Shown here: one piece after another, positions 1,295 to 48,162 of the stretch
Layout: each line of letters opens with the position of its first letter
Numbering within the stretch: the first letter of the stretch is position 1
Assembly (NCBI GenBank): GCA_948442695.1
Contig: CAOJSF010000005.1
Coordinates: forward strand, 4,168-68,167
Length of the DNA stretch: 64,000 nucleotides
From: an uncultured Clostridia bacterium
GTDB lineage: Bacteria; Bacillota; Clostridia; Christensenellales; UBA1242
Direction of reading: 5' to 3'
Made by a program: the position numbers and the translations under genes
Notes under the pieces: model-generated
Seen by the model: only the letters and a program-made list of their open reading frames with translations
Database searches by the model: none
What the model was told of the DNA's origin: nothing

Positions 1295-1371
1295 TGGTGC
1301 GTCGCAAGGGATTCGAACCCCTGACCTTTCGTTCCGTAGACGAACGCTCTATCCAGCTGAGCTAGCAACGC
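1295..1371 (-). tRNA. tRNA-Arg (anticodon ACG), CCA encoded
   Basis: The reverse complement folds as a 77-nt cloverleaf. Acceptor GCGTTGC/GCGACGC; D arm GCTC-AGCTGGATA-GAGC; anticodon arm TTCGT-CTACGGA-ACGAA (U33, anticodon ACG); T arm AGGGG-TTCGAAT-CCCTT; then ACCA. Confidence 0.9.
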
Positions 1372-27967: not shown

Positions 27968-30900
27968 TTATCGTTTCGTGCTTAAGTTAAGTTTTCCTAA
28001 GATGATATTTGCTTCATCTTCACCAGTAATAATGTTTCTATCAATCCCGCTTACCTTCATCAGCACCTCAACTCTGATATATTGATTTGGATTGAAGTTT
28101 GAAGTTAATTCAATCTCTCCAGTTATAGAATCAATATTTGCATTACCCAAAGAAATATCTCCACCTTTGTTGTCAAGTCTGAATGAGATATAATTTGAAA
28201 GTTTCTCATCGTTTATAGCAATCTTTCCATCTTCACTTAAATTAATATCAATCTTTCCGCCACCTGGAGTATAGCCCTTGTAAAGTGAGAATGCTCCATT
28301 TGACCAGTCTTCAAGTGAGGTTATTCCATTATCTAAAGTAAATCCGATTTCATCAACATAGTCTCGTTTAAGTTTATAGACATAACCTGTCACTTCATAG
28401 TTGGCGGTTATTCGATAATCATAAGTTGTCTCAGTTGGTTGAGGATTTGGTGTCTCTTCCGTATCAGGTGCAGTTTCACCCTCTGCAGTCATAGAAGGCT
28501 CTTCCTTCTTAGTGAATTTACACTGAGCAATATAATATTTATTTATACTATAACTGTTATCAGCCAGTAAAGCAACATTTTCAACATAAACAACATCTTT
28601 GTCTATTGTTGAAATAGTAAAGGTTGCTTCTGTTGAAGCGTTCTTATCTGACCAAACTTGACCAGTTGGAGTGCCAGCCTCTATTTTAACATCTCTCAAA
28701 TTGTCATTTGAATTCTCTTCTATGGTATTTGTAATATAGTAGATTCCTATCACATCTTTGATGTTTGTGACTGTGACATTGTCACCTGGTTTAACATAAA
28801 CACCCAAAGCATTTGAAATTGATTCATATTTAGTAATTGCAATATTTGAACTTGTATTTGAAAGTGAAATTCTGTTTGTATAGATTTTTCCTTCTCTTTC
28901 AAGGTTCAAGTCAAAGATCGCAGTGCTGTTGGCTTTTACAAGCACTTCAATAGTATCATTTATGAAGCCATCAATTGAAACTGCTTCATTTTCATCTTTT
29001 ACACTTCCTACTATTTTGTCAGAAAGAGCAAAAGCCTGACCATCTCTCACCACTCTGTTTTCTTTTTGCTCGATTTGTGCCTTTCGAACAACAGTTATCT
29101 CTGTTGTGCAGTCACAATATTCAAAGATACTATTATCATTATCTTCATACTTAAGTCTTACAACAAGTTTTAAAACAGCAGAATCGCCATCTTTATACAA
29201 ATCAGTGTTTAACAGTTTTGGCATAACATAGAGTTGTTTGCTGTATGTTTCTTTTTCTTCTCCATCTTCTTTTGCTTTGCCATAGACAGGTCTAGGTTTG
29301 CCATGGTTATAAACTTTTGAGTTTGTTGTGTCATCACTTGAACCTGTCGAGCCTGTTTGCGTTGTTTCGTTTCCAAAGAATCCATTTCCGTCGGTAGCAA
29401 AAGCCCATTCTTGAACAGAAGAAGATTCAGTCTGCTCAACATTTCCAACCTTTTGGTTTGTTTTAGGGTCAAAGAGTGAAATATTTTCCACCTTGATTTT
29501 GTCAATCATAGGGAAATTTAAATATTTCTGACCTTCTGAATCAATATTTATTTCATATTCATATTCAGACTCAGTATCACCTTCCGCAACAGTCTCTGGA
29601 GTTGAAGGCTCTTGTTTCTTTAATTCTTTATGAGGCTCATAAGCCTTATCTTGATTAGTATTTGAGATATTATCTAGATAAATTTTATCGTTATCATTTA
29701 CCTGTGCTATAGTATAATCTTCTACATATTGCCATGCATCAATGCCTTCAAAATTAAGCACTTTAACTCTTTCATCAGAACTAAGTGGAATTTTTGTTTC
29801 TGAAGAGTTGATTACATAATTGTCATTATTGCCATTTTTAATAGTAAGTTCGGTATATTGTGCAGACAAATCAATATAGTCTTCTTCAGCAATTGAGATT
29901 GAATTTGTAATTGCAGGAATGTTTTTTGTGGCTTTAAGCATAAAGTAAAGTCTGTAAGTAAAGCCATAATCATCCACACCTTCAATGAAATAATATTGAT
30001 TTCCAAAAATTACCGCTTTTACATCATTAAACGCAATGGAATCTGTTCCTTTATATTTAATATTACTAATAGTTGTTTGATCTTTTTCAAATTGCCAGCC
30101 TGAGTCTTGTGAATTTTCTGGTAAAGAAGAACCATAGAAAATCTTATTCAGCAAGTTTCCATTATCATTATAGGTCACACCTTCAATGATTTCATTTACT
30201 TTCATTGTAATTGCAAATTTTGAAGTTGAAAGTTCTTCCCTCTCACCAGTTCCGTTTTTATGTTTGATTGTCATAAATCCGTCAGCACCAGTAAGTTTAA
30301 ACTCTTTATATTTGGTTGAATTTGATGATAAAATTTCTATCTTATCAACCATATCAAAGTTTGAAATAATTGTTTTATCGTTTACAATCTCTTCTTTGCC
30401 ATTTTCAGCACTGCCACCATATGAAACCTCATAATCTGGCATGATTTTAATTACAACATAGAAGAAAGTCTCAAATCCTTCAACCTTATATGTGATTTTT
30501 CCGAGAACATAGTCACCGGTATTTTTTGCACCAAAAGGTATAAGTTCATAATCATAAATACATTTAGCAGTCGTGCTTATGATTGGTCCCACAAACATAT
30601 ATTCTTTTCCGCTATTAGTTCCAGTATCATTAACAGTGCGCTTAAATGCGTTTATGTCATATCTGCCCATATATTCATTTAAGACTTTTTGTGTCGCCTC
30701 ATCTATTTGTGCAGAATTTGTCTCTCCTGCTTTTGAAGATGAACCACCATTATAATACAGAAGTTCAAATCCCAGACCAGATTCTTCACCAGTAAAGTCG
30801 GTATAACTCACCATTCTGTTTGTTGTTGGGTGATATATTCCCAAAAGGTCATTTATACTGTCGTATGTGTTGTTGACCTCAATTTCAACAATATTTTTCA

Positions 30901-33900
30901 GCGTTGAAATTTTTTCTTTGACATCAATGTCGAATCCCGCCATATAGTAATAATTGAATGAGAACTCTGCATTTAATTTAACAATTGAGCCATCATTTTT
31001 GTCAAATGTTAAACTAAATTCCTTCTTATTTATTTCATCAAAAGGAGTTTTTTCAATATCTATAGAGAAATAATCTTTTTCAGATACAACAGTTTCAATA
31101 GATTCAATGTCTTCACCTGATTCACCATTTTCATCAGGTTTAACATTTTCTGTTGTTTGTTTGTTGAAAAGGCTGTCATATTTTTCAAAATCAACTAAGA
31201 TTGTATTTCCATCTTCATCAATTCCATAAGTCATCTGTGCCCTATTTGCAAGTGAAACTTTTGGTTGTCCGTTTGCGAGTTTAAAGACACTTGATGCTAA
31301 GTTTGTAGGAAGTTCAGACTCTAAAACAGGCTTATCATTCACTTGAAGTGCACGAGTAGTTGCATCAATTTGAATTTTATTGTTTTCTATACTTGATGCA
31401 AGATATAAACCTTTGAAAGTTTTTCCTACAAAAGATATTCCCAAATCATAATATCTGTTGGTGTCTTGATCTTTTGCAGAAATGAAGTTAGGATATGACG
31501 CATAATATTTTACAACTTCTTCATTTGATGTTTCATCTTTTATTGTCTCTTCAAATACAAAATAGTATTCATCTTGATATTCTGCCATTTGACCCAGTTC
31601 AGCATAGACAAGTCTTTCGCCAGCAAAGAGGTCTTTTGTGTTGGTTTTGTCAATATAAATTTTCTCATAACTAACAGAAGTATTTTGATATTCACCCTGC
31701 ATTGTGAAGTTTGAAACAGTATGTGGCACGATTGAAAGAGAATTTTCAAGAAGTCGTATATTATATACAATATTGACTGCTTTATAGGTTATGCTAAGTT
31801 CTATCTTTGCATCCCCAGAATTGTTGGTTCTTGCAAACTTAATTTTCTGACTTAAATCTATCGAACCATTTATAGCAACACCTTTTTCGCTGTCTCCAAC
31901 ATAAATTTCTGCATTGTCAGTCTTAGAATTCAACTGAACAATCAAATCTTCATTTTCAATATCTACTTTATCTTTATATTCAACTACTTTACTATCAGTT
32001 GACAACCTGCCTTCAAGAACATCAATTCTGCTGTTTTCACCGAAAATGGCAGTGCTGTTTAAGAATGTTTTAATATTTTCAAAAGTTGCCCCGCTGTCAA
32101 TGTATTCAAATTTCATCATTCCACTTGAATTTGGCACTGGGTAATTTGAAGATAATTTTACACTAGGTGCAACAACAAATGAATAAACAACTTCAAATTC
32201 TTGATATGCACTATAATTTTGATTTTCCTCATTTTCTTCAGCCATTTTAGGGAAATTGATTCTGACTTTCAAAGTAAGAGTCAATGTCACTTTATCAGAA
32301 ACATGATTTGTTTTGATTATTACTTTATTTTTATCTTGTTGATCTTTCTCAATTCCGCCAAAAGCAGGATTTGTTGATGCGCAAGATATATCTATTAATG
32401 TATTTTTTATGTCTCCGTCATACAAGTCTGCAATATTAAATTTATATCCCGTCCCTGCAATAACCTCATCGTCAACTGCGATGTTTGTGATAGGAGTAAT
32501 ATTTGCTTTCAAAGTATATTCGCAAGAGAAATTGAAAATTCTTTCTATATCGTTTTCAGTTTTACCTGGAATTGAAACAGTATAGTCTATCTTAATTTTC
32601 TTGTCGCTTATAAGGTCGCTTATTGTCAACTGTCCATCACTTGTGCAAGAAACTAAGTCTTTTCCGTCACCAGAAATACTTAAAGATTTAAATGAATAAT
32701 CATAATCTGTTACAACAATTTCACCTTCAGTTAATTTAATCGCACCCTTCAAGTTTAATGTGTCGCCACCATTGAAAGTGTTTGTATTTGAAATGAAAGT
32801 AATATTTGCTTTAAGGTCAATTTCGATTGAAGCAAGATATCCCATTGTTGTATAAACCGCAAGACTGATCTTTTTGTCTGAATCAATATAATCTTTAAGT
32901 TTAATTGCAAGTAAACCTGTTGAAGGGTTATAATCAATGCCTTTGATATTTTCTGCTCCTGCTGAAATGCCTACATCCGCTCTGTCACGAATGATTGTGT
33001 CAATGTTTCCAGCCTCTTTTTTAAGCAGGTCAACTTGCATTGAATAAATATTGTCTTTATCTTCGCTTGCAGAATACTTATTGCCATTATTGATTGTAAG
33101 TTTGAGTTTGTCTGTTTCAGTGACTTTTCCATCTTTATCGGTAAATCTCACTGCATAAACTTCTGAATCTTCATTTAAAATCAATTTGTAAGTTTGCTCA
33201 CCACCTATTACTGAAAGATTGTCATCCTCAGTTGTTTGGTAAGTGTGCTTTATAATTATTGTCATCTTTGAATCTGCATATTTGCCAAAAGGTCTATAGT
33301 AAAGAGTTTTGAAATCACTTGAGAAACTAAGTTCTATAGTTTTATCCCACTGTTCACTATCTGTCATGATTTCGTCACCAACTTCAACCGAGACAATTTC
33401 ATTTTTGAATTTAAGTGTTTCAAAAATCTTTTCAGATTGATAAGATATTGCCATATCACCTTCTAAGATAGCAATTTTAATTTGCAAATTATCTTTGGTG
33501 ATTCCACTATCTTTATCATTGTCATCCACAAAATAATCATTCAAATCAATTTCTCTTGATTTTCCGTCGGCAACAGCAAAATCAACTTTCACCTCTTTTT
33601 CTTTGTAAGTGAACATAAGTTTTGAATCTGATTTTAAATCCAACTCAAGTTTAGTATCAATCACATCTATTTCTAAATCATATGTGGTTGCTACAACATT
33701 TTTAAGATTCAATATCTTGTTTACATAGAATCTCTTTTTATCGCTATTGAGTGTTTTGTTATCAAAAAGTTCTTCAAGATTTATCTCGCTGATACTACTG
33801 CTGTCACCAAATATATATTCTGCAGAGCCATTATAGGCATAGGTCGAATTCTCAACTTCTACATCAGCAATTACTTTAAGTAGATAATAGAAAGATTGTG

Positions 33901-36900
33901 ATATTCCATAATAATCAATTTTATATTCAAAAGCCACATAAACATCTTCAAGATTGTTGCTTAAGTGGTTGAGAATGACGAATCCATTAGAATCAGCATC
34001 AGTTTTTATCACATATTTTGAATTAACCAGACTTGAATAATCAATCATACCTTCTTTATCTATTTTATAGATATTGAGATATTGTTCAAATCCTGGTATT
34101 GTATAAAGTCCGCCCTCTTGAATATATTTATACTTTGTTTGAGTGCCCTCGATTTCTATGAATCTGTCAGCAAAGTCATATTGACTTAAAATTTGACTGA
34201 GTTTTCCCGCCTCTATTTCATTATATATTCCCTTGTCGATTAATTGTTCAGGTCTTAAAAGAGATGTTTCAACTCTTCTATTATTTTGTATTTCTTTGTC
34301 ATAAACAACAAAATCATATCCTATTTGAGAAATTAGTAAAGGAACATGAACTGTTGCTAAAATCTTATTGCCAGAGTCAACTATATTTAAAACAATATAA
34401 CAATTTTCATTATTAAGTCCAAACAATAATTGTTGATTTACTTTTGACTGGAATTGAATTGAATTGTCAGCACCAGCCTGATAGATAGATGATAAAACAT
34501 TGCCAAATCTATCTCTATGAGATGGACTTACTTTATAGTTTTCTGTCAAATTGCCTGCCTGCCATATTTGACCAGCGTTTCTTGCAAACATCAAGTAATT
34601 GATATCTTCTTCACCATTATTGATGATTTGACTTTGTGGTTTAATTGAATTATTACTTTGAAGTGAGAATGTTGAAGCAAGAAGAGAGTAAATATCATCT
34701 GATTCAATAAGTTTTATTTTTATAGCAATCTTTCCCAGTTCTATATTGCCACTTCTTACAAACAAATTAGTTGTAAGAAATTCTTGATTGTAATCAAAGA
34801 AGAAATCTGCATTGCTTTTCTTCTCGACATTACCATCTTTAAATTCAAGATAATTTTCAAATACAAATGAGATATCTTTATCTTGAATAGATGTAACTCC
34901 ATCATGTCTTGTAAGAAGGACATAATCACCTATTTGTTTTGAGTTTTCTCCTAAAACATAGAAGACTTTTTCTTTGTCATTGATGATAAGGTCTCTTTTT
35001 ACTTCAAATTGAATAGGTTGATTGAGAGCAAAACTATTGTTTCCTTCTGGTCTGAAATAGATTGTGAAGATTTGTTTTTCTACATTCCAGAAATCATAGA
35101 ATTTAATTTTATTTGTGCTTCCATCATATTCACCGATTGCATTTTGAGATTTTGTTTCGCTGAGAGTATATTCATATTTGTCATCCATCACAATATAGTA
35201 TATTTTGCCTTCAAACAGACTATTAAGTTCATTGCTTGTCTCTTCACTTGAATTTAAAAGTTTAACTTTGTTTGCAAGCGTTGTTTCCGCATTTGCCCAA
35301 ACAGACTTCTCACCTGTATAAGAATCATTTGTCACTGTCACATTTTGGAGCAATTGAAGAGTAAACATGATATTTACTGCACCACTTGAATCTGAAATAG
35401 CAAATTCCATAAAATGTGGGGCTGCAAAATTTTTGTTTATTTTGACATTTGAGATATTTATATTTGTAAGTTTAGATCTTATTTGATCAGCAGTAAGATT
35501 ATCTTCTATTGAAACCAAACCATTGTTGTCATATAAGGTCAGCATTCCATTATTGCCGAAAAGTTCTAATAATTGCACATTTGACAATCTGTTTTCAGCA
35601 AGATATTGTGCTGTAAATTTGAAATTTACATTATCTAAACTAAACTTTTCTTCTGAATTGCCGTCACTATTGATATAAAGTTCGATTAAGTTTTTAAGTT
35701 CTATCACATCTTCAGTTTTATCAAAAGAAGCACCATATTTTTTGACAATGACTTCTTTTGAAGTGTCAGAACTTTCTAGATTTATATTTGTTTGATATGT
35801 CTTTAAAAGTGAGTCATATTTTATTTTAGAAATTCCTGTTGATTTTACATTAAATTTTATTTCAAAAGGTTTTTCATTTGCAGTTAATGTTGAATTTTCA
35901 TCGTTGCTTTTAATAATAAGTGAAAGTGGAATATAATCATTTGAATTTGTATTTTTAAATGCAAAAGATTGACCATTTGGCAAGATGTTGATTATGCCTG
36001 CATTTCCCTCTTTAATAGTAAATTTCCACTGATTTCTAAGTGTGCTTGTTTTTCCTTTTTGGTCAGTAATGACAAAGTTTGAGCCATTTGCACCCGCAAT
36101 GTCATTTATAAATTCTGTCACATTATTAAATGTCTTTGTAGTTCCGCCAACAAGAGTTACAGTGATTTCAGTATTGAAACCACCCTCTTTAGTAAGATTT
36201 TGGTCAACTTTTATTACTTCAGCATTTATCTGAGCAATAGAATTATAAACATCTGACATTTCTTTTACACTTATCGAAACAGCCTTTGGCTTATAGATAT
36301 TTATAAGTTTGTCTGAAATAGAATTTATATCTCTCTTCCATTCAATAATATTTTCATCACCATTATCATAAATGAGTGAAATATAGCCCAAATACAATCC
36401 ATTTATGCTTTCAATCTGAACTGAAGATTTTGTTGATACAGAGTATTCAACCCTCATCACCTTAGTTTCGGTATCAGTCAAAAGTGTGCCTTCATCATAA
36501 ATGAAATATTCTGAGATATCATTTCCAGCCATATCATAAACAACTGGTCTGATAAAACCTTTTTGGAATTCATCTTTAAATACCGGAACTGACTCTGAAG
36601 CGATTGTGTAAATAAGTTTAAAATCAAGGTCACTTCCTAAGTTGATTGAAATTTCTTGCTCGTCATCTTCTAAAAAGTTTGAAGCATTGATATAGAAATC
36701 TTTAATTGAGTTTGAATAAAGTGCAGTTTTTGAAGCGACATTCTTTGTGCTACTGCACATTTCTGCAATATCATAAAGCCCTTCACTACTGCTAGGTCTG
36801 ACAGTTGCAAAATATAATGAAAATTCGCCAGTATTATATAGAGAAAGTCGAGAGCCGTTGACTGCAAACAAAGTTGTCATTCTTCCACTGTTTGTTTGAT

Positions 36901-38650
36901 ATCTGCCCGACCTTTCAAGTATATAGCCATTTTCTCCGATGATTCTGTTTGCCATATCAATATAATCAGCAAGTGGGCCATCACCAAAAGAAACAAAGAA
37001 AACTTTATCTTGATAGATGTTTTCTGCTGGGACTGTGGCATATTGATTGAGGTCAAGAGTCACAGATTCAATCTTGCTTTCATCTCCAACAACTTTATAA
37101 TTTAAAAGGACATTTAAATCAGACTGGTCACTCCATGAAAGTGGAAGTTCTTCATGTTTTGAAATTGAAAGGTTTACCTGACTTATCATAACTTGACCAT
37201 TTACGTCAGCAAACAACTGACTGTCATCATTGACAAGAAGCACGACATTGATTTTAAGTTCCATAGCCTCGGTGGCGGAAAGTTTCCAGTTTGCATAACG
37301 CAAATCATTGACCGAAGAATTTGGTTTGTAATATCTCTTTCCCTCGATGTCAACATATGGCACTTTCTCATCACCAACAATAGAGAGTGTTTTGTTTGCC
37401 CCTTGTGTTGGGTCAATGCCATTATAGTCAAACGAAATTGCAATATTTTTCAAAAGATTGTCAAGCAAAAGTCCTGATGAAGAATAAACTCTTACTCCCA
37501 AAAAGTCACTGTTGCTTTGATAAGGATATTGATTTAGATATAAGTTGAGAGGTGATTCAACATTCATAGAAATGGTCTGAGAAACCTTTGAAACTGTAAA
37601 CTGACCGATATTCTCCTCACCTATTGAAATTTCTGAGTATGAAAGTCTTGCAATTTTTTCTTTGTCAGAAGAATTTACATCCGTTTGCACCCTTTCACTG
37701 AGGTAAGCAAGCACACCTGTATAATAATATTCGCTGTTGTCAATCTCGCCAACAAGATTATCATAGTCAAGTTGAGACTTTGCAGTGATGAAGGTATAGC
37801 CATTTATTCTGATATTATCTTCTGCATGATTTGATGCAACAAAATGCAAAGTATGATTGTCATCATAGACTGCCTTAATATTTTCAGTATTTATCGCTTC
37901 ATAATATGAACGCTTTTCTCTCCATTCATTTTCACTAAGACTGCTCTTATTGTCAGAATACATATATTTACTGTCAGCAGGAATATATTTTGTCTGAACA
38001 GTGAAACTTTCATTTCTTACAACCTGAGTTGTCAGTTCTCCCCTTGAATTATAAATAAGGGTTTCAGTTGAATAGACTGGCACATCAACAGCAATGTTTA
38101 TTTCTGTTGTGCCTATCTGAATATTTTGAGAGCGTGCAACAAGTTTGGAAATTCCCCCTGCTATCCAGTTTATGTAATTGTCATCTTTATCTTTTATAGG
38201 ATTGCCATTTTCATCTACGAGGTGCTTTGTAAGAAGATGAACATTGAAAGGACGACCGAGTGAAACATACTTTGGCACTTGAATAGACTTATTAGAAATA
38301 AGTTCATTGACTGGGTCATAATCAGTCAAAACACCATTGCCAAAAGAAAGTTCAATCTTTCTTTTAGTGACATCTTCAGTTGGCGAAGTTATCGTCAGTT
38401 GAAAATCCTCCCCAACTTCAAGTTGACCGTGATTTGAATTATACAAATTGCTGTCATATTCAAACGCTATGCTTTCTGGCATTGTGATTTTTTCATCAAA
38501 TCCACCGGCAAGGTAAACTCCCAAAACCGTGACTCCTGAAATGAAAAAAACACTTGCGATTGACACAACAACCGTCATCCATGTTTTCCACTTAGATTTG
38601 AATTTCTTTTCTTTTTTCTTTTCGTCTTTTACTTCGTTTTTCTTTTTCAT
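27968..38650 (-). CDS. giant (3560 aa) surface protein with a single N-terminal membrane anchor
   Basis: Uninterrupted 10,683-nt ORF with an AGGTG RBS. The Lys-rich N-terminus is followed by a TM (WMTVVVSIASVFFISGVTVLGVYLAGGF). The rest is Asn/Ser/Thr/Asp/Ile-rich and beta-type, with three acidic Thr/Pro/Glu linkers. No LPXTG and no obvious internal repeats. Confidence 0.85.
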   Translation of the reverse strand: MKKKNEVKDEKKKEKKFKSKWKTWMTVVVSIASVFFISGVTVLGVYLAGGFDEKITMPESIAFEYDSNLYNSNHGQLEVGEDFQLTITSPTEDVTKRKIELSFGNGVLTDYDPVNELISNKSIQVPKYVSLGRPFNVHLLTKHLVDENGNPIKDKDDNYINWIAGGISKLVARSQNIQIGTTEINIAVDVPVYSTETLIYNSRGELTTQVVRNESFTVQTKYIPADSKYMYSDNKSSLSENEWREKRSYYEAINTENIKAVYDDNHTLHFVASNHAEDNIRINGYTFITAKSQLDYDNLVGEIDNSEYYYTGVLAYLSERVQTDVNSSDKEKIARLSYSEISIGEENIGQFTVSKVSQTISMNVESPLNLYLNQYPYQSNSDFLGVRVYSSSGLLLDNLLKNIAISFDYNGIDPTQGANKTLSIVGDEKVPYVDIEGKRYYKPNSSVNDLRYANWKLSATEAMELKINVVLLVNDDSQLFADVNGQVMISQVNLSISKHEELPLSWSDQSDLNVLLNYKVVGDESKIESVTLDLNQYATVPAENIYQDKVFFVSFGDGPLADYIDMANRIIGENGYILERSGRYQTNSGRMTTLFAVNGSRLSLYNTGEFSLYFATVRPSSSEGLYDIAEMCSSTKNVASKTALYSNSIKDFYINASNFLEDDEQEISINLGSDLDFKLIYTIASESVPVFKDEFQKGFIRPVVYDMAGNDISEYFIYDEGTLLTDTETKVMRVEYSVSTKSSVQIESINGLYLGYISLIYDNGDENIIEWKRDINSISDKLINIYKPKAVSISVKEMSDVYNSIAQINAEVIKVDQNLTKEGGFNTEITVTLVGGTTKTFNNVTEFINDIAGANGSNFVITDQKGKTSTLRNQWKFTIKEGNAGIINILPNGQSFAFKNTNSNDYIPLSLIIKSNDENSTLTANEKPFEIKFNVKSTGISKIKYDSLLKTYQTNINLESSDTSKEVIVKKYGASFDKTEDVIELKNLIELYINSDGNSEEKFSLDNVNFKFTAQYLAENRLSNVQLLELFGNNGMLTLYDNNGLVSIEDNLTADQIRSKLTNINISNVKINKNFAAPHFMEFAISDSSGAVNIMFTLQLLQNVTVTNDSYTGEKSVWANAETTLANKVKLLNSSEETSNELNSLFEGKIYYIVMDDKYEYTLSETKSQNAIGEYDGSTNKIKFYDFWNVEKQIFTIYFRPEGNNSFALNQPIQFEVKRDLIINDKEKVFYVLGENSKQIGDYVLLTRHDGVTSIQDKDISFVFENYLEFKDGNVEKKSNADFFFDYNQEFLTTNLFVRSGNIELGKIAIKIKLIESDDIYSLLASTFSLQSNNSIKPQSQIINNGEEDINYLMFARNAGQIWQAGNLTENYKVSPSHRDRFGNVLSSIYQAGADNSIQFQSKVNQQLLFGLNNENCYIVLNIVDSGNKILATVHVPLLISQIGYDFVVYDKEIQNNRRVETSLLRPEQLIDKGIYNEIEAGKLSQILSQYDFADRFIEIEGTQTKYKYIQEGGLYTIPGFEQYLNIYKIDKEGMIDYSSLVNSKYVIKTDADSNGFVILNHLSNNLEDVYVAFEYKIDYYGISQSFYYLLKVIADVEVENSTYAYNGSAEYIFGDSSSISEINLEELFDNKTLNSDKKRFYVNKILNLKNVVATTYDLEIDVIDTKLELDLKSDSKLMFTYKEKEVKVDFAVADGKSREIDLNDYFVDDNDKDSGITKDNLQIKIAILEGDMAISYQSEKIFETLKFKNEIVSVEVGDEIMTDSEQWDKTIELSFSSDFKTLYYRPFGKYADSKMTIIIKHTYQTTEDDNLSVIGGEQTYKLILNEDSEVYAVRFTDKDGKVTETDKLKLTINNGNKYSASEDKDNIYSMQVDLLKKEAGNIDTIIRDRADVGISAGAENIKGIDYNPSTGLLAIKLKDYIDSDKKISLAVYTTMGYLASIEIDLKANITFISNTNTFNGGDTLNLKGAIKLTEGEIVVTDYDYSFKSLSISGDGKDLVSCTSDGQLTISDLISDKKIKIDYTVSIPGKTENDIERIFNFSCEYTLKANITPITNIAVDDEVIAGTGYKFNIADLYDGDIKNTLIDISCASTNPAFGGIEKDQQDKNKVIIKTNHVSDKVTLTLTLKVRINFPKMAEENEENQNYSAYQEFEVVYSFVVAPSVKLSSNYPVPNSSGMMKFEYIDSGATFENIKTFLNSTAIFGENSRIDVLEGRLSTDSKVVEYKDKVDIENEDLIVQLNSKTDNAEIYVGDSEKGVAINGSIDLSQKIKFARTNNSGDAKIELSITYKAVNIVYNIRLLENSLSIVPHTVSNFTMQGEYQNTSVSYEKIYIDKTNTKDLFAGERLVYAELGQMAEYQDEYYFVFEETIKDETSNEEVVKYYASYPNFISAKDQDTNRYYDLGISFVGKTFKGLYLASSIENNKIQIDATTRALQVNDKPVLESELPTNLASSVFKLANGQPKVSLANRAQMTYGIDEDGNTILVDFEKYDSLFNKQTTENVKPDENGESGEDIESIETVVSEKDYFSIDIEKTPFDEINKKEFSLTFDKNDGSIVKLNAEFSFNYYYMAGFDIDVKEKISTLKNIVEIEVNNTYDSINDLLGIYHPTTNRMVSYTDFTGEESGLGFELLYYNGGSSSKAGETNSAQIDEATQKVLNEYMGRYDINAFKRTVNDTGTNSGKEYMFVGPIISTTAKCIYDYELIPFGAKNTGDYVLGKITYKVEGFETFFYVVIKIMPDYEVSYGGSAENGKEEIVNDKTIISNFDMVDKIEILSSNSTKYKEFKLTGADGFMTIKHKNGTGEREELSTSKFAITMKVNEIIEGVTYNDNGNLLNKIFYGSSLPENSQDSGWQFEKDQTTISNIKYKGTDSIAFNDVKAVIFGNQYYFIEGVDDYGFTYRLYFMLKATKNIPAITNSISIAEEDYIDLSAQYTELTIKNGNNDNYVINSSETKIPLSSDERVKVLNFEGIDAWQYVEDYTIAQVNDNDKIYLDNISNTNQDKAYEPHKELKKQEPSTPETVAEGDTESEYEYEINIDSEGQKYLNFPMIDKIKVENISLFDPKTNQKVGNVEQTESSSVQEWAFATDGNGFFGNETTQTGSTGSSDDTTNSKVYNHGKPRPVYGKAKEDGEEKETYSKQLYVMPKLLNTDLYKDGDSAVLKLVVRLKYEDNDNSIFEYCDCTTEITVVRKAQIEQKENRVVRDGQAFALSDKIVGSVKDENEAVSIDGFINDTIEVLVKANSTAIFDLNLEREGKIYTNRISLSNTSSNIAITKYESISNALGVYVKPGDNVTVTNIKDVIGIYYITNTIEENSNDNLRDVKIEAGTPTGQVWSDKNASTEATFTISTIDKDVVYVENVALLADNSYSINKYYIAQCKFTKKEEPSMTAEGETAPDTEETPNPQPTETTYDYRITANYEVTGYVYKLKRDYVDEIGFTLDNGITSLEDWSNGAFSLYKGYTPGGGKIDINLSEDGKIAINDEKLSNYISFRLDNKGGDISLGNANIDSITGEIELTSNFNPNQYIRVEVLMKVSGIDRNIITGEDEANIILGKLNLSTKR

Positions 38651-43706: not shown

Positions 43707-43746
43707 AAAAAAAGGATAATTTTAATTTAATTATCCTTTTTTTTTG
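43707..43746. terminator. bidirectional terminator
   Basis: AAAGGATAATT-ttaattt-AATTATCCTTT flanked by A and T runs. Confidence 0.65.
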
Positions 43747-43808: not shown

Positions 43809-45083
43809 TTATATTTTTTTATTTGGATAAAATAATGATAGAATTGCACCATAACAAACAAAGCCACGTTTTGTGATAAACACAATATCATCAAAAATCT
43901 CTATATATTTTTTCTTCAATAAAAACTCAAATTGCTTTTTAAAATATTCTCTTGAAGATTCTCCTAAAATTTCGTCCATAATTTTTATACTAAATTGTCC
44001 ACAATATCCACTGATTGCAATATATTTTGCAAGCCTTTCCTCTTTTGGCAAAATATATGTATCTTCACTGGAAAATGTTTTATTCTCCAAACATTTCTCA
44101 AGAGGGATTTCTTCTTTTCCTATATTATAACTTACACCCTCCCTACTTTTACTTTGTGCCGAAATTCCAAATCCTTTGTAAGAGATATTATTTATCATCC
44201 TGTTTTTTATGTAAGAGGACAGCCCCAAATCAGTTTTACTTAAAGAAAATGTATTTTGTCCAAATCTTCCACAATAACCCAGTTTTATCAAATTCTTATA
44301 TAAAAATTCATACTGCTTGAAAAGTTGACGCTTAGTTTTGTTTTCCTTGACTTTCAATATATTTGTGCGAAATTCATATAATGTCACCTGTTCTGGCATG
44401 AAATATTCAATGGTCGCAATCGAATTTTTCAAGTCTTGTTTTGATTGACCATTAAGTCCATACATAAGATCAATATTTATTTTTTCAATCCCATTTGTTT
44501 TGCACCAGTGTTTTACCTGCATCATTCTTTGCAGTGAAGGACTGCCCCTGTGATTATCTTTCAAAAACTTTCGATTGACCGTTTGCAATCCAAAAGATAT
44601 TCTCTTAAAACCACAACGATTGATTATTTTTATCTTATCTTCTGTTATTGAAAAAAAAGTTGCTTCAATACTTGCCTCAAAATCTTTTGCTATTTTCAGT
44701 TTTGAAAATATTTCAGTTTTTACAAATTCAAGAAGAGTTTTAAAATTTTCATCACTGAGTATAAGTGGCGTCCCTCCTCCTATATCAAACCCAAACAATT
44801 CAATATTTCTATGCGATTTTATGAAATTCTGTATATCTTTTATAAGAATTTCAATATATTGTTTCTCTAAATCTTCATCACCTTTGACATATTTGACATA
44901 TTCACAAAACTTGCATTTTGACTGGCAAAAAGGAATATGAATATAAAAACAAAGTTTGGATTCGTCAAACTTAAGTTCACCTTCATATTTATACTTTTTC
45001 CAATCTGATTTATCTATCGGATATGATGTATTCAGTTTATCATTTTTCTTTGATTCATTAAAAAAGTGTTCAATATTCTGCAT
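43809..45083 (-). CDS. HemN/HemW-like (class C-type) radical SAM protein
   Basis: YIHIPFCQSKCKFCEY (CxxxCxxC), DIGGGTP and a HemN_C-like tail. Starts 11 nt after the upstream radical SAM gene. Confidence 0.75.
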   Translation of the reverse strand: MQNIEHFFNESKKNDKLNTSYPIDKSDWKKYKYEGELKFDESKLCFYIHIPFCQSKCKFCEYVKYVKGDEDLEKQYIEILIKDIQNFIKSHRNIELFGFDIGGGTPLILSDENFKTLLEFVKTEIFSKLKIAKDFEASIEATFFSITEDKIKIINRCGFKRISFGLQTVNRKFLKDNHRGSPSLQRMMQVKHWCKTNGIEKINIDLMYGLNGQSKQDLKNSIATIEYFMPEQVTLYEFRTNILKVKENKTKRQLFKQYEFLYKNLIKLGYCGRFGQNTFSLSKTDLGLSSYIKNRMINNISYKGFGISAQSKSREGVSYNIGKEEIPLEKCLENKTFSSEDTYILPKEERLAKYIAISGYCGQFSIKIMDEILGESSREYFKKQFEFLLKKKYIEIFDDIVFITKRGFVCYGAILSLFYPNKKI

Positions 45084-45094
45084 TATTTATTCCT

Positions 45095-46009
45095 TTAAAA
45101 TATCGGGTTATTAAATCCTGCACAAAGTTTGTTGTCATAAGTATATGTCAACTGACCAACAGTTGAAGGGCAAAGATTTCTTACATTTCTTGAATAAAAT
45201 TCAACCAAATTCCCTGATTCTGACAGATACATTCCATTTATACAATCACAAACAGCCATATTGCATAATTTTTTCACCACAACACCGCTTGCACTTAAAT
45301 TATTAAAAATCTCTTTATATTCAACGAAATGTTGTTTAGAAAAATCATTTAAAGGCATGAGTCCAACAAAACCCACCCTAAATACGCCCAACTGACCAGC
45401 CATATCAAGATATTTTTCAACTTCTGTTTTAGAGTCAATAAAATCTTTTATGAGAAGAGAATTAAGTCTTATCAGGTTTTTATCTTCAAGTTTTTCTAAA
45501 ACATTTTTAATCGTGCTTATATGCGCAGTCTTAAATCCAAATATTGAATCATTTATTTCATCTAAATAATGATGTCTTGAAATATGTATTCCATAAATTA
45601 GGTCAAGTTTGTCAAGCAAAAAAATCTTTTCAAGATTGATGCCATTTGTGTTTATTGTGACAATTTGACGTTCACCACACACCTCAAAAACGGCATTTAT
45701 CACCCTGTTTAACAATTCAACATCCAAAAGCGGTTCTCCGCCCGTTATTGCAATGCGATTTAGTAATTTTTTTGATTTTAGTTCTTTTAAAACAGATTTC
45801 AGTTTTTCTATATCAAAATTTTTATTTGATTTTGCTGTCTTCTTTTTTGTATTATTATTACAAAATGGGCAACTAGCAAGGCAGGCATCTGTTATTGAGA
45901 TATATAAATTATATCTTAAATTTTCACCCTGCTGATATTGCCCACTTTCATTGCAAATATTATCTTTAAAAGAGACTTTCTTTCCAAAAATTTCAACAAC
46001 ATTTGCCAC
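45095..46009 (-). CDS. radical SAM enzyme, candidate peptide/protein-modifying maturase
   Basis: ITDACLASCPFCNN (CxxxCxxC) and ITGGEPLL, with five additional C-terminal Cys (CNMAVCDC..C..C). GTG start 3 nt after the upstream stop, with its GAGGTG RBS inside the upstream gene's last codons. Confidence 0.75.
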   Translation of the reverse strand: MANVVEIFGKKVSFKDNICNESGQYQQGENLRYNLYISITDACLASCPFCNNNTKKKTAKSNKNFDIEKLKSVLKELKSKKLLNRIAITGGEPLLDVELLNRVINAVFEVCGERQIVTINTNGINLEKIFLLDKLDLIYGIHISRHHYLDEINDSIFGFKTAHISTIKNVLEKLEDKNLIRLNSLLIKDFIDSKTEVEKYLDMAGQLGVFRVGFVGLMPLNDFSKQHFVEYKEIFNNLSASGVVVKKLCNMAVCDCINGMYLSESGNLVEFYSRNVRNLCPSTVGQLTYTYDNKLCAGFNNPIF

Positions 46010-46012
46010 CGT

Positions 46013-46459
46013 TTAACACCTCGAATAAGAACTTCCGCAACTCGAACTGCTTGACATACAACTTGCCATAGGCCTTCCGCCTTCATAAGGAGTATGTTTT
46101 TTATTTTTGATATAATCCTTATTTTGCCACTCACGCAAATGTCTATCAAAATTTCTGTTGATAATGCCATCATTTAAAATACTTACACCTGAATAATTCT
46201 TATTTTGTTTGAAATTTAGATCGGTGCCCTCTTTCAATTTCTTATAGGCAGATGAAAAAGACATTTCTCCACCTTCAACTATTGCATTCAAATACTTCGC
46301 CTCAAGCAAAGATTTGAATGCATCATCGGCCTCCTTAAGTGCTTCAGTATAATTCAAATACAAAACAAAATCATGCAATTTATCATAAACCATTGCTTTA
46401 ATAGAATATCTTGCATTAACCATATCAATAAATTCAACAAACTCTTTTTCTTTTTCCAT
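46013..46459 (-). CDS. 148-aa protein with a C-terminal GG + Ser-rich C-x6-C-x6-C tail; candidate radical-SAM substrate/precursor
   Basis: AGGAG-6 nt-ATG. The helical ~126-aa body ends ..HTPYEGG-RPMASCMSSSSSCGSSYSRC-stop (verified from the DNA). Confidence 0.6.
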   Translation of the reverse strand: MEKEKEFVEFIDMVNARYSIKAMVYDKLHDFVLYLNYTEALKEADDAFKSLLEAKYLNAIVEGGEMSFSSAYKKLKEGTDLNFKQNKNYSGVSILNDGIINRNFDRHLREWQNKDYIKNKKHTPYEGGRPMASCMSSSSSCGSSYSRC

Positions 46460-46725: not shown

Positions 46726-47442
46726 TTATCTATCTCGTGTGATTGCTAAAAGTAAGAAAAGCATTCTTAAAAAGTATGCAAGTGAAACCAACAGCGAAGC
46801 AACATAAGTCATCGCTGCCGCATTGAGAAGATTATCAACCCCTCTTTTTTCTTCATCACTTGTAAGCCCCATTTCCTGCAGAAGCACCTTTGCTCTTTTT
46901 GAAGCATTAAATTCAACAGGCAATGTGACAAGTGATGCGACAACAGAAATTGCATAAATGCCCACATAAACATAAATTAATATACTGCCTGCACTCATGA
47001 AGAAAACAAGATTCATTATCAGTCCTATTACAAGCATCGGCACTAAAAGAGAAGAAACAAAATTACTGGTCTTTATCACCGCTTGACGGACTTTAAGTGC
47101 TTTATATCCCTGCTTATCTTGAAGAGCATGACCAAACTCATGTGCAACTATCGCATGAGCGGCAAGAGATTTTGAATTGTAATTAGGTTGTGAAATATTA
47201 AGTGTTTTTGTTGCTGAATTGTAGTGGTCACTCAGCGTCCCTCTGCAAGAGCCTATTGTTATATTCAATCCATGCTCTTGCGCAAGCCTCTCGGCAAGTT
47301 CTGCACCTGTAATATCTAAAGATGAAGGAATATTTTTATATTTATTAAATGCACTTGTCACCTTTCCTTGAGCCGACAATGCAATAATGATTGCAATAAG
47401 AATTGCAAATCCGCAAACTATATATCCTATATAAAATTCCAT
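46726..47442 (-). CDS. membrane zinc metallopeptidase, YugP-like (Zn_peptidase_2 type)
   Basis: N-terminal TM, HEFGHALQD (HExxH) and C-terminal TM helices. Confidence 0.75.
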   Translation of the reverse strand: MEFYIGYIVCGFAILIAIIIALSAQGKVTSAFNKYKNIPSSLDITGAELAERLAQEHGLNITIGSCRGTLSDHYNSATKTLNISQPNYNSKSLAAHAIVAHEFGHALQDKQGYKALKVRQAVIKTSNFVSSLLVPMLVIGLIMNLVFFMSAGSILIYVYVGIYAISVVASLVTLPVEFNASKRAKVLLQEMGLTSDEEKRGVDNLLNAAAMTYVASLLVSLAYFLRMLFLLLAITRDR

Positions 47443-47451
47443 TGCAACCTC

Positions 47452-48162
47452 CTAATTGAATAGTTTTCCTTTTTTTGAAACTCCTGTCCAGAATAAAATA
47501 ATCTTCAAAAATTCTGCCCAGTAGGTAAGTCTAGCATCATTTAAAAATTTCTTGCAAATTTTCAGTTGATTTTCATTAAAAATTTCTGCCAAAAATTTCA
47601 TTGCATTATTTGACGCATCCTTTTCAATTGATATTGTCATAACTTTGACAACAAGAGCGAGAATAAAGATGAAAACTCCTAAAGCAATAAGTGAACAGCC
47701 TATTATGAATAAAGTTTTTCCAAAAAACAACAAAATCAACCCTGCAAGAAGACTGGGCATCATAAGACATCCCAAAACTCTTCCCAGTCTTCTAAGTCTA
47801 TTTAGTTTTTTTAGTTTGTTTCCGCTGGCATCTTGAAGAGCATGACCCAGTTCATGTGCAATTATCGAATATGAGGCTAGGCTAGGCTTATGAATTGTAT
47901 CTGTTGACAAAAAGAGTTTGCGTTTGCTATAAGCATCACCTGCCACCCTTGAAATCGGAATAATTTCAATCGGCACCTTGATAAATTTGCCGGCAACAAA
48001 ATCTACAAAATCCACAGGCGAAATTTTTGTATTCGCCTCAATATTGTTCATTTCTTCATATTTCTGCATAAATCTATCGCCTGAATAATTTGCAACAGCA
48101 AGCAAGAAGCATAAAAGTAGCAAAATGGCAATTACGCCGATAATTATAAACCATGTACTCAT
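47452..48162 (-). CDS. membrane zinc metallopeptidase, YugP-like (tandem paralogue)
   Basis: Same architecture; HELGHALQD. Confidence 0.75.
   Translation of the reverse strand: MSTWFIIIGVIAILLLLCFLLAVANYSGDRFMQKYEEMNNIEANTKISPVDFVDFVAGKFIKVPIEIIPISRVAGDAYSKRKLFLSTDTIHKPSLASYSIIAHELGHALQDASGNKLKKLNRLRRLGRVLGCLMMPSLLAGLILLFFGKTLFIIGCSLIALGVFIFILALVVKVMTISIEKDASNNAMKFLAEIFNENQLKICKKFLNDARLTYWAEFLKIILFWTGVSKKGKLFN

Follow-up and report, generated by a model that had tools for sequence, protein, structure and literature searches.

What does a small protein that ends in cysteine do beside two radical S-adenosylmethionine (SAM) enzymes? The question is raised by three minus-strand genes, here called A, B and C, in a 64,000-nucleotide stretch of DNA from an uncultured Clostridia bacterium (GenBank assembly GCA_948442695.1, contig CAOJSF010000005.1, positions 4,168 to 68,167). 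We refer to this whole stretch as the window and its coordinates are numbered from its first letter. The sequence-only reading of these genes had framed them as a candidate natural-product system of the ribosomally synthesised and post-translationally modified peptide (RiPP) type, with A as a precursor and both radical SAM enzymes as its partners. We observed that the conserved core is the A and B pair and not the A-B-C trio, and that the family-wide context of this pair points to nicotinamide adenine dinucleotide (NAD) and ADP-ribose metabolism in both bacteria and phages. We consider with moderate confidence that A and B belong together as a dedicated system of two proteins, of which the window would contain a three-gene version.

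All three genes were confirmed at the following coordinates in a check of the open reading frames (ORFs) of the window, where they form a coupled operon with the signals that flank them.

46507-46479, minus strand: promoter-like site TTGACA-17-TATAAT, a 12/12 consensus match, just upstream of A
46013-46459, minus strand: gene A, an ORF of 148 amino acids (aa)
45095-46009, minus strand: gene B, an ORF with a GTG start for a 304-aa radical SAM enzyme
43809-45083, minus strand: gene C, an ORF for a 424-aa radical SAM protein of the HemN superfamily
About 43707-43743, minus strand: terminator-like hairpin, its 15-bp stem bordered by an A-run and a U-run and suited to termination in either direction

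The sequence AAGGAG is located 7 nucleotides ahead of the ATG of gene A. Only 3 nucleotides separate the stop codon of A from the start of B, with AGGTG lying inside the last codons of A, while 11 nucleotides separate the stop of B from the start of C, which is preceded by AAGGA. The hairpin is situated between the convergent genes C and glyQS and its RNA fold was calculated at -14.5 kcal/mol (z = -2.6); a simple terminator scan missed it, the stem having only two G-C pairs. The ORFs, their spacings, the promoter-like site and the hairpin together bear out the earlier proposal of a three-gene coupled operon between a promoter and a terminator. All three are real genes rather than chance ORFs because A has true homologues and a confident helical model, and B and C have many homologues (hundreds, with more than 130 for B alone). 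No extra small gene was found within the operon, and an Rfam scan of the 64-kb window found no riboswitch near it. Palindromes of the NrtR type (21 bp, GT-N7-AC) were also sought upstream of the window operon and related loci, where none was convincing and where the operon starts often lay outside the fetched flanks.

To follow the pair beyond the window, loci were fetched through B from genomes, viral contigs, metagenomes and deposited phages, and were labelled L001 and so on. The resulting B-family sample comprises 61 loci with 54 distinct B sequences. A locus was scored as linked if an ORF of 60-260 aa on the same strand, ending in Cys, lies at most 150 bp from B or from the block of B and C. 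Such a neighbour was found in 52 of the 61 loci; five others are cut by contig ends and four have no such ORF. The Cys tail and the 304-aa enzyme were therefore observed to co-vary, which was the test set by the sequence-only reading, as 52 of the 56 loci that are not truncated have an adjacent Cys-ended ORF. The background, taken as the Cys-ended fraction of other ORFs of the same size in the same data, is about 1-2%. The pairing persists in phage contigs where B is only 28-36% identical and where either gene order is seen, with A tails such as SNNSCGSIGASSGRLSPSC, DDDPCSRGGFGSRITRC and GGCGCGSGHC. The window operon shows all the features of the pair, namely a Cys-ended A together with C19, CxxxCxxC, SRH and C254-x-C256 in B.

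It could be argued that these genes are neighbours by accident, A being a low-complexity orphan, C a housekeeping HemW and B a stray MoaA-like enzyme. Automatic pipelines do label the homologues as 'MoaA' or 'coproporphyrinogen oxidase', and the window copy has no informative neighbours, as it lies among a penicillin-binding protein (PBP), two Zn peptidases and glyQS. However, A and B stay side by side over 54 distinct B sequences and in phages too, translation of the genes is coupled, and B and C score far under the cut-offs for MoaA, HemW and HemN. We therefore consider an incidental arrangement to be very improbable.

The C-terminus of window A reads YEGGRPMASCMSSSSSCGSSYSRC; quoted also as EGGRPMASCMSSSSSCGSSYSRC, it has Cys134, Cys141 and Cys148 at 7-residue spacing, with Cys148 as the C-terminal residue. 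The conserved part of this tail is a short module.

46016-46039, minus strand: terminal two-Cys module CGSSYSRC, residues 141-148 of A

A word-indexed homologue search with A returned A alone, and an exhaustive HMMER search gave five true homologues with 38-51% identity. These five have longer tails built of (S/R)CGSSSSSS units and all of them end in SRC. Tail statistics were taken from 46 distinct A sequences, counting Cys in the last 30 residues. The terminal Cys was invariant (46/46) and is the sole universal feature. One Cys was found in six sequences, two in 17, three in 12 and at least four in 11, so that one or more further Cys are present in 40 of the 46; a second Cys, in the form "SCG", is common. 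Across the homologues the number of tail Cys ranges from 1 to 8 and the last two Cys are 6 to 15 residues apart. A basic residue occurs at positions -1 to -5 from the end in 43 of the 46 sequences, and tails with a single Cys occur as well, for example GGRRLGGKNC. The double glycine is present in window A and in its closest homologue, P0122, and absent from most homologues.

The GG and Ser-rich C-x6-C-x6-C tail described in the sequence-only reading is thus present in window A, but it is not conserved across the family, where only the terminal Cys is universal. Likewise, a fixed core pattern does not hold, given the Cys distances of 6-15 residues and the six single-Cys homologues. Judged from the tail sequences, the double glycine, the abundance of Ser and the strict 7-residue Cys period are a decoration confined to the lineage of the window. 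Where tails are rich in repeats, their internal units were observed to copy the terminal motif, for example SSYSRC followed by GG...SYSRC, and it might be speculated that stepwise trimming of such tails could expose a new terminal Cys. We also noticed that one A gene is intact in L002 (4436-4909, 156 aa) and frameshifted at an A-rich run in L003 (1553-2023, 85 + 58 aa), which reflects an error of assembly or else natural on/off variation. Furthermore, in some Clostridia A and B stand alone on a mobile element (L055/L056, 5776-11658) with a Mob_Pre relaxase and TnpV, ISL3 and Y2 transposases; there the tail of A is not Ser-rich and ends in WCEYVGNPAARRFWGLDRSC.

In the AlphaFold2 (AF2) model of A, residues 1-121 are confidently helical, with a predicted local distance difference test (pLDDT) score of about 90, whereas the tail falls below 50 and is predicted to be disordered. 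What had been taken for a leader of about 126 aa is instead modelled as a helical domain that is folded and about 120 aa long. A fold search of this N-terminal domain against the PDB gave no match, and neither did A when compared with Pfam, NCBIfam, PHROGs and PADLOC.

Protein B carries the motif CLASCPFC and matches only PF04055 and PF13353 in Pfam. Its best NCBIfam score is against MoaA (62.6 bits, cut-off 284.05), and it falls below the His-Xaa-Ser models HxsC (44.8 against 267.9) and HxsB (27 against 370) as well as MftC (21.7 against 265), PqqE (30.4 against 381) and CcpM (22.7 against 500), with other peptide-maturase models also far under their cut-offs. Searches of B and C against PHROGs, PADLOC and NCBIfam gave only generic radical SAM, pVip or NrdG-like matches, all of them sub-cut-off. 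No SPASM or twitch domain was found in B, and no RRE (PqqD-like) domain in A, B or C, by Pfam and NCBIfam. In these respects the sequence-only reading was correct: neither radical SAM enzyme reaches a curated NCBIfam cut-off, so that no known family fits, and the RRE domain is missing as it had stated, as is SPASM. Known defence systems and known RiPP classes were considered for the operon and rejected, as there was no match above any family cut-off.

Near-invariant residues in the 54 B sequences are C19, C43/C47/C50, GGE (90-92), T121, S144-R145-H146, C254, C256 and Y272. The extra near-invariant Cys residues are therefore one at the N-terminus (C19) and two forming a C-terminal CxC (C254 and C256). 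Of the five extra C-terminal Cys that had been pointed out earlier, only C254 and C256 are conserved and the other three are not, with the N-terminal C19 conserved besides. The AF2 model of B has a pLDDT of 93 and its best full-length Foldseek match is MoaA, with a template modelling (TM) score of 0.66, followed by EpeE, GDGT-MAS and viperins. In a comparison with solved structures, YydG/EpeE, viperins and MoaA match the core of B with values of about 1e-11. Three Cys of MoaA bind a second cluster, and by comparison C19, C254 and C256 probably hold a second Fe-S site in B.

The observations on A and B bear directly on whether A is a classical RiPP precursor, to which B (and C) would add thioether or methyl groups before the core is cut after GG and exported, as in relatives of the sactipeptides and ranthipeptides. 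A radical SAM enzyme does adjoin a Cys-rich C-terminal sequence, GG is found in window A and P0122, B is weakly similar to peptide-modifying radical SAM enzymes such as YydG/EpeE, and in L054 ABC exporters lie beside A-C-B. Set against this, SPASM, twitch and RRE domains are absent, GG is missing in most homologues, the 'leader' is a folded domain and single-Cys tails occur. The pair has no protease or exporter as a conserved neighbour, such genes being absent from the window operon and most related loci, with ABC exporters in L054 only, and it is found in housekeeping NAD operons and phages. The natural-product framing is thus not supported, and we consider a classical precursor improbable.

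Protein C has HIPFCQSKCKFCEY and GGGTP. Pfam finds only PF04055 in C and no HemN_C domain, and its NCBIfam scores are all below cut-off: STM4012 (140.5 against 380), ChuW/HutW (124 against 400), HemW (TIGR00539, 119.4 against 205.4) and HemN (TIGR00538, 115.3 against 324.95). The concern that C might simply be HemW is answered by this score (119 bits against 205) and by the missing HemN_C domain. Against the PDB, C matches HemN (1olt) at 1.3e-15 and the class C methyltransferase NocN (9p2u) at 1.6e-14. On its motifs and core, C belongs to the HemN superfamily in the broad sense (CxxxCxxC, GGGTP and a HemN-like core). Of the members of this superfamily (HemN, HemW, ChuW/HutW, NosN, NocN, TbtI and STM4012), STM4012 is the best model for C, which differs from them in scoring under every cut-off, in lacking HemN_C, in having its own N-terminus and in being located in NAD clusters.

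We observed that C adjoins A and B in only part of the B family, in the orders A-B-C, A-C-B and B-C, and many loci have A-B alone. A MiaB/RimO-like enzyme takes the place of C in L053 and L026 (69-79 bits on TIGR00089), and some loci have an additional radical SAM protein of 232-237 aa. In nine phage-type loci an RlmN-like radical SAM protein of 261-266 aa adjoins A and B; examples are found at L035 9924-10709, L039 6515-7300, L042 6834-7619, L068 6882-7667 and L072 6010-6810. The mechanism of RlmN uses a C-terminal Cys that carries a methyl group. The phage RlmN-like proteins have no Cys after CxxxCxxC and are therefore without this residue. The 'SCG' motif of A resembles the 'ACGQ' motif of RlmN, and by analogy A might supply the absent Cys in trans.

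Homologues of C were also found in NAD clusters that have no A or B. As an example, L057 encodes an NMNAT-like protein fused to C, which lies between PncA and PncB and adjoins NadE and NrtR; neither A nor B was found within 6-7 kb of it.

L057 7001-8788: fusion of 595 aa, an NMNAT-like cytidylyltransferase domain with a full-length C homologue behind it

The conserved N-terminus of C itself (FNESK.NDKLNTSYP) is common to this fusion. The presence of C in NAD clusters without A and B ties it to the pathway and not only to the tail, and as C is variable, replaceable and also found without the pair, it is not a fixed tail-modifying partner. The two radical SAM enzymes are consequently not a constant pair.

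The same metabolism surrounds the pair. At least two different NAD or ADP-ribose genes were found in the flanks of 24 of the 61 B loci, phage loci included, and the neighbours confirmed by Pfam are NadD, PnuC, NadR-like, ADP-ribosylglycohydrolase (ARH), CinA, NrtR, NadK, PncA and PncB. Four arrangements, with domains assigned by Pfam, illustrate this context.

Arrangement 1: NadD, PnuC, NadR-like, [A, B], ARH, CinA, NrtR, NadK
Arrangement 2: PncA, PncB, NUDIX, NadE, NadD, MiaB-like, [A, B], ARH, CinA, NrtR, DUF5662, NadK
Arrangement 3: PncA, PncB, NUDIX, Prs, the 237-aa radical SAM protein, NadD, [A, C, B], ARH-CinA fusion, NrtR, NadK
Arrangement 4: PncB, NadE, NadD, [A, C, B], CinA, DUF5662, NadK, NrtR
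L058 9200-10504: fusion of 434 aa, ARH with CinA (NMN deamidase domain), directly after A-C-B

The core orders in these clusters also vary, with PnuC-NadR-A-B-CinA, NadD-A-C-B-ARH and methylthiotransferase-A-B-ARH all being observed, and ARH is located directly 3' of B in L015, L016, L024 and L053 as well. The B proteins of the NAD arrangements are 35-47% identical to window B. Given such divergence of B, and given that neither gene content nor gene order is constant among the arrangements, the association with NAD genes is not one inherited accident.

In addition, NadE and NadD have uncharacterised proteins of 120-144 aa between them, and the NAD clusters repeatedly contain a DUF5662 protein (L004 1854-2611, L053 4312-4737, L059 5173-5607 and L004 6383-6922 for these small-protein and DUF5662 sites). 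The 141-aa protein of L053 has homologues in L021, L023, L025 and L033, and the small protein of L059 is 144 aa long. These small proteins may be further parts of the same pathway.

A similar setting was observed in huge phages. A phage of 447 kb carries NMNAT-NUDIX, NAMPT, B, A, NADAR, the RlmN-like radical SAM protein and ARH together, and in a phage of 642 kb A-B adjoins NadR and PnuC. The depletion and rebuilding of NAD is a central battleground between phages and bacteria. The genes that flank the phage copies of A and B are the same as those of NARP2 (NAMPT and NMNAT) and NARP3 (PnuC and NadR, as in PMC13464706). Neither the NARP3 paper (PMC13464706) nor a survey of viral NAD and ADP-ribose systems mentions radical SAM genes, and A and B are thus outside the described NARP2 and NARP3 pathways. 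A further phage record (LR756501, 735 kb) has a B homologue at L144 7989-8885 that lacks an adjoining Cys-ended ORF; the record contains a second matching place as well.

From this evidence the following mechanism can be proposed. A would dock by its helical N-terminal domain while its flexible Cys-ended tail is fed into B, where C43/C47/C50 bind the SAM cluster and C19/C254/C256 would form the probable second Fe-S site. B would then perform radical chemistry at or with the terminal Cys of A. In the variant that we favour, this Cys would be modified or would have an intermediate attached to it, and A would then work inside the cell as a 'swinging arm', a cofactor or carrier borne on a protein. 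It could also be visited by another radical SAM enzyme, namely the HemN-like C in the window and a MiaB/RimO-like or RlmN-like enzyme elsewhere. The pathway served would be pyridine-nucleotide (NAD/ADP-ribose) metabolism, with no exported antimicrobial peptide. Because its docking domain is separate and conserved, A seems to move from one enzyme to another, which favours the carrier or cofactor role. Such a role within an intracellular pyridine-nucleotide-linked pathway is about an even prospect in our estimate. The sequence-only reading had offered an alternative in which the 148-aa protein is itself the functional product and bears the modification, and this is closer to the evidence.

The fold of B and the NAD context could also be read in a different manner, in which the substrate of B is a small nucleotide of the pyridine or adenine kind (NAD, nicotinamide mononucleotide, nicotinic acid mononucleotide or ADP-ribose) and A is a helper only. 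The Cys of A would then be a hydrogen or electron donor, or a consumable donor of sulfur or Fe-S, with the CG(S)n repeats allowing several rounds. There are precedents in MoaA, which acts on GTP, in viperin, which acts on CTP, in the C-terminal Cys tail of ribonucleotide reductase and in the donors LarE and THI4. MoaA is the best full-length fold match of B and the viperins score well too, the NAD clusters and the NMNAT-C fusion agree with a nucleotide substrate, and the variable spacing (6-15) and number (1-8) of Cys suit a flexible thiol arm over a fixed ring. Furthermore, the second radical SAM enzymes are of methyl- or methylthio-transferase types, which normally act on aromatic carbons of nucleotides. 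However, a helper thiol is normally located within the enzyme and not in a separate protein of about 120-200 aa with a conserved docking domain, a hydrogen or electron donor has no need of a strictly C-terminal position, and a stoichiometric donor would be ill-suited to supplying NAD in bulk during phage infection. We regard a nucleotide substrate with A as helper as the main rival, a possibility of lesser weight.

The carrier or cofactor role of A has several observations weighing against it. B is related in fold and sequence to both nucleotide enzymes (MoaA and viperin) and peptide enzymes (EpeE/YydG and SuiB), so its real substrate could be a small molecule. No detectable A was found at four of the 61 B loci, and no cultured carrier was found, all carriers being metagenomic; when deposited phage genomes were searched for B, only uncultured huge phages were returned. 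A phmmer search of the whole 64-kb window with NAD genes found none, and the window copy and its closest relatives (L001 and L006-L010) lie outside NAD clusters. Finally, the contact between B and A is inferred.

Three other ideas found no support and were set aside. A glycyl-radical 'spare part' protein was dismissed because A is not large enough and has a disordered tail, the nickel-pincer (Lar) pathway because there is no LarB or LarC, and bulk NAD synthesis from A itself because the stoichiometry is implausible.

Comparison with known systems places the proposed carrier nearest to several distinct precedents without matching any of them. MftA/MftC of mycofactocin and PqqA/PqqE resemble A and B in having a small product with a reactive C-terminal residue beside its own radical SAM enzyme, and in that this product is intracellular with a cofactor or redox link. 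Mycofactocin serves NAD-bound dehydrogenases. Unlike MftC and PqqE, B has no SPASM domain and no RRE partner comparable to MftB or PqqD, and the A family, at 100-200 aa, has a folded domain and a terminal Cys as the key residue in place of Val-Tyr or Glu...Tyr. MoaA (GTP 3',8-cyclase) resembles B in fold and in its nucleotide-cofactor context, and the three extra conserved Cys make a two-cluster logic plausible for B, but the extra Cys residues of B are arranged differently, no molybdopterin genes are nearby and B has an obligate partner.

The maturases of sactipeptides and ranthipeptides (for example CteB, PapB and SkfB) are likewise radical SAM enzymes paired with a Cys-containing C-terminal peptide region, and an auxiliary cluster that binds the substrate Cys would be analogous. 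They differ from A and B, which come without SPASM or twitch, RRE, a leader protease or an exporter and in which ring size is not conserved. LysW and the pearlin scaffold TglA-Cys are similar to A in being small proteins whose extreme C-terminus is the working end and is visited by several enzymes; in TglA-Cys the C-terminal Cys is the reactive residue (PMC9016710, PMC9303977). With A there is no PEARL or other tRNA-dependent ligase and no DUF692 enzyme, and its Cys is genetically encoded, so that the likeness is one of analogy and not of homology.

To our knowledge, NAD metabolism is regarded as essentially mapped. The literature searched described neither the A/B pair nor the function of the STM4011/4012 proteins, and NCBIfam release 20 has no model for the pair. 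Nevertheless, up to four uncharacterised radical SAM families and a Cys-ended protein recur in NrtR-type NAD operons of uncultured gut Bacillota, and the same set recurs in phages, the largest of 642 kb, as a neighbour of NAMPT/NMNAT or PnuC/NadR. We tentatively suggest, as one possible and rather uncertain reading, that pyridine-nucleotide metabolism includes a radical step not recognised so far, which A and B (with C or its substitutes) would carry out on or with a Cys tethered to a protein, and which these Bacillota and huge phages would share. Such a step might open a new anaerobic way to the NAD ring system, modify that ring or offer a new means of recovering NAD from a breakdown product. 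If the NAD link is functional, it would represent new enzymology in which a MoaA-fold enzyme has an obligate protein partner. It may also expose a missing reaction of NAD homeostasis or of phage counter-defence, and would provide a genetically encoded thiol 'arm' that is possibly reusable as a tool.

The surroundings of the operon in the window consist of the PBP gene, two Zn_peptidase_2 genes and glyQS. This order (PBP, the two Zn peptidases, A-B-C, glyQS) is kept in L001, L007 and L008, where B is 63-77% identical, and not further out. L006, with a B in the same identity range, is cut at B and retains glyQS alone. Other features of the window are as follows.

46726-47442 and 47452-48162, minus strand: two tandem paralogous membrane proteins of the Zn_peptidase_2 family (PF04298), directly upstream of the operon
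1298-1371, minus strand: tRNA gene; Rfam matched nothing else in the 64 kb
27968-38650, minus strand: one ORF of 3560 aa, larger by a wide margin than any other in the window

A link between the Zn_peptidase_2 proteins and trimming of the tail is possible. The 3560-aa ORF presumably encodes a giant surface or adhesin-type protein.

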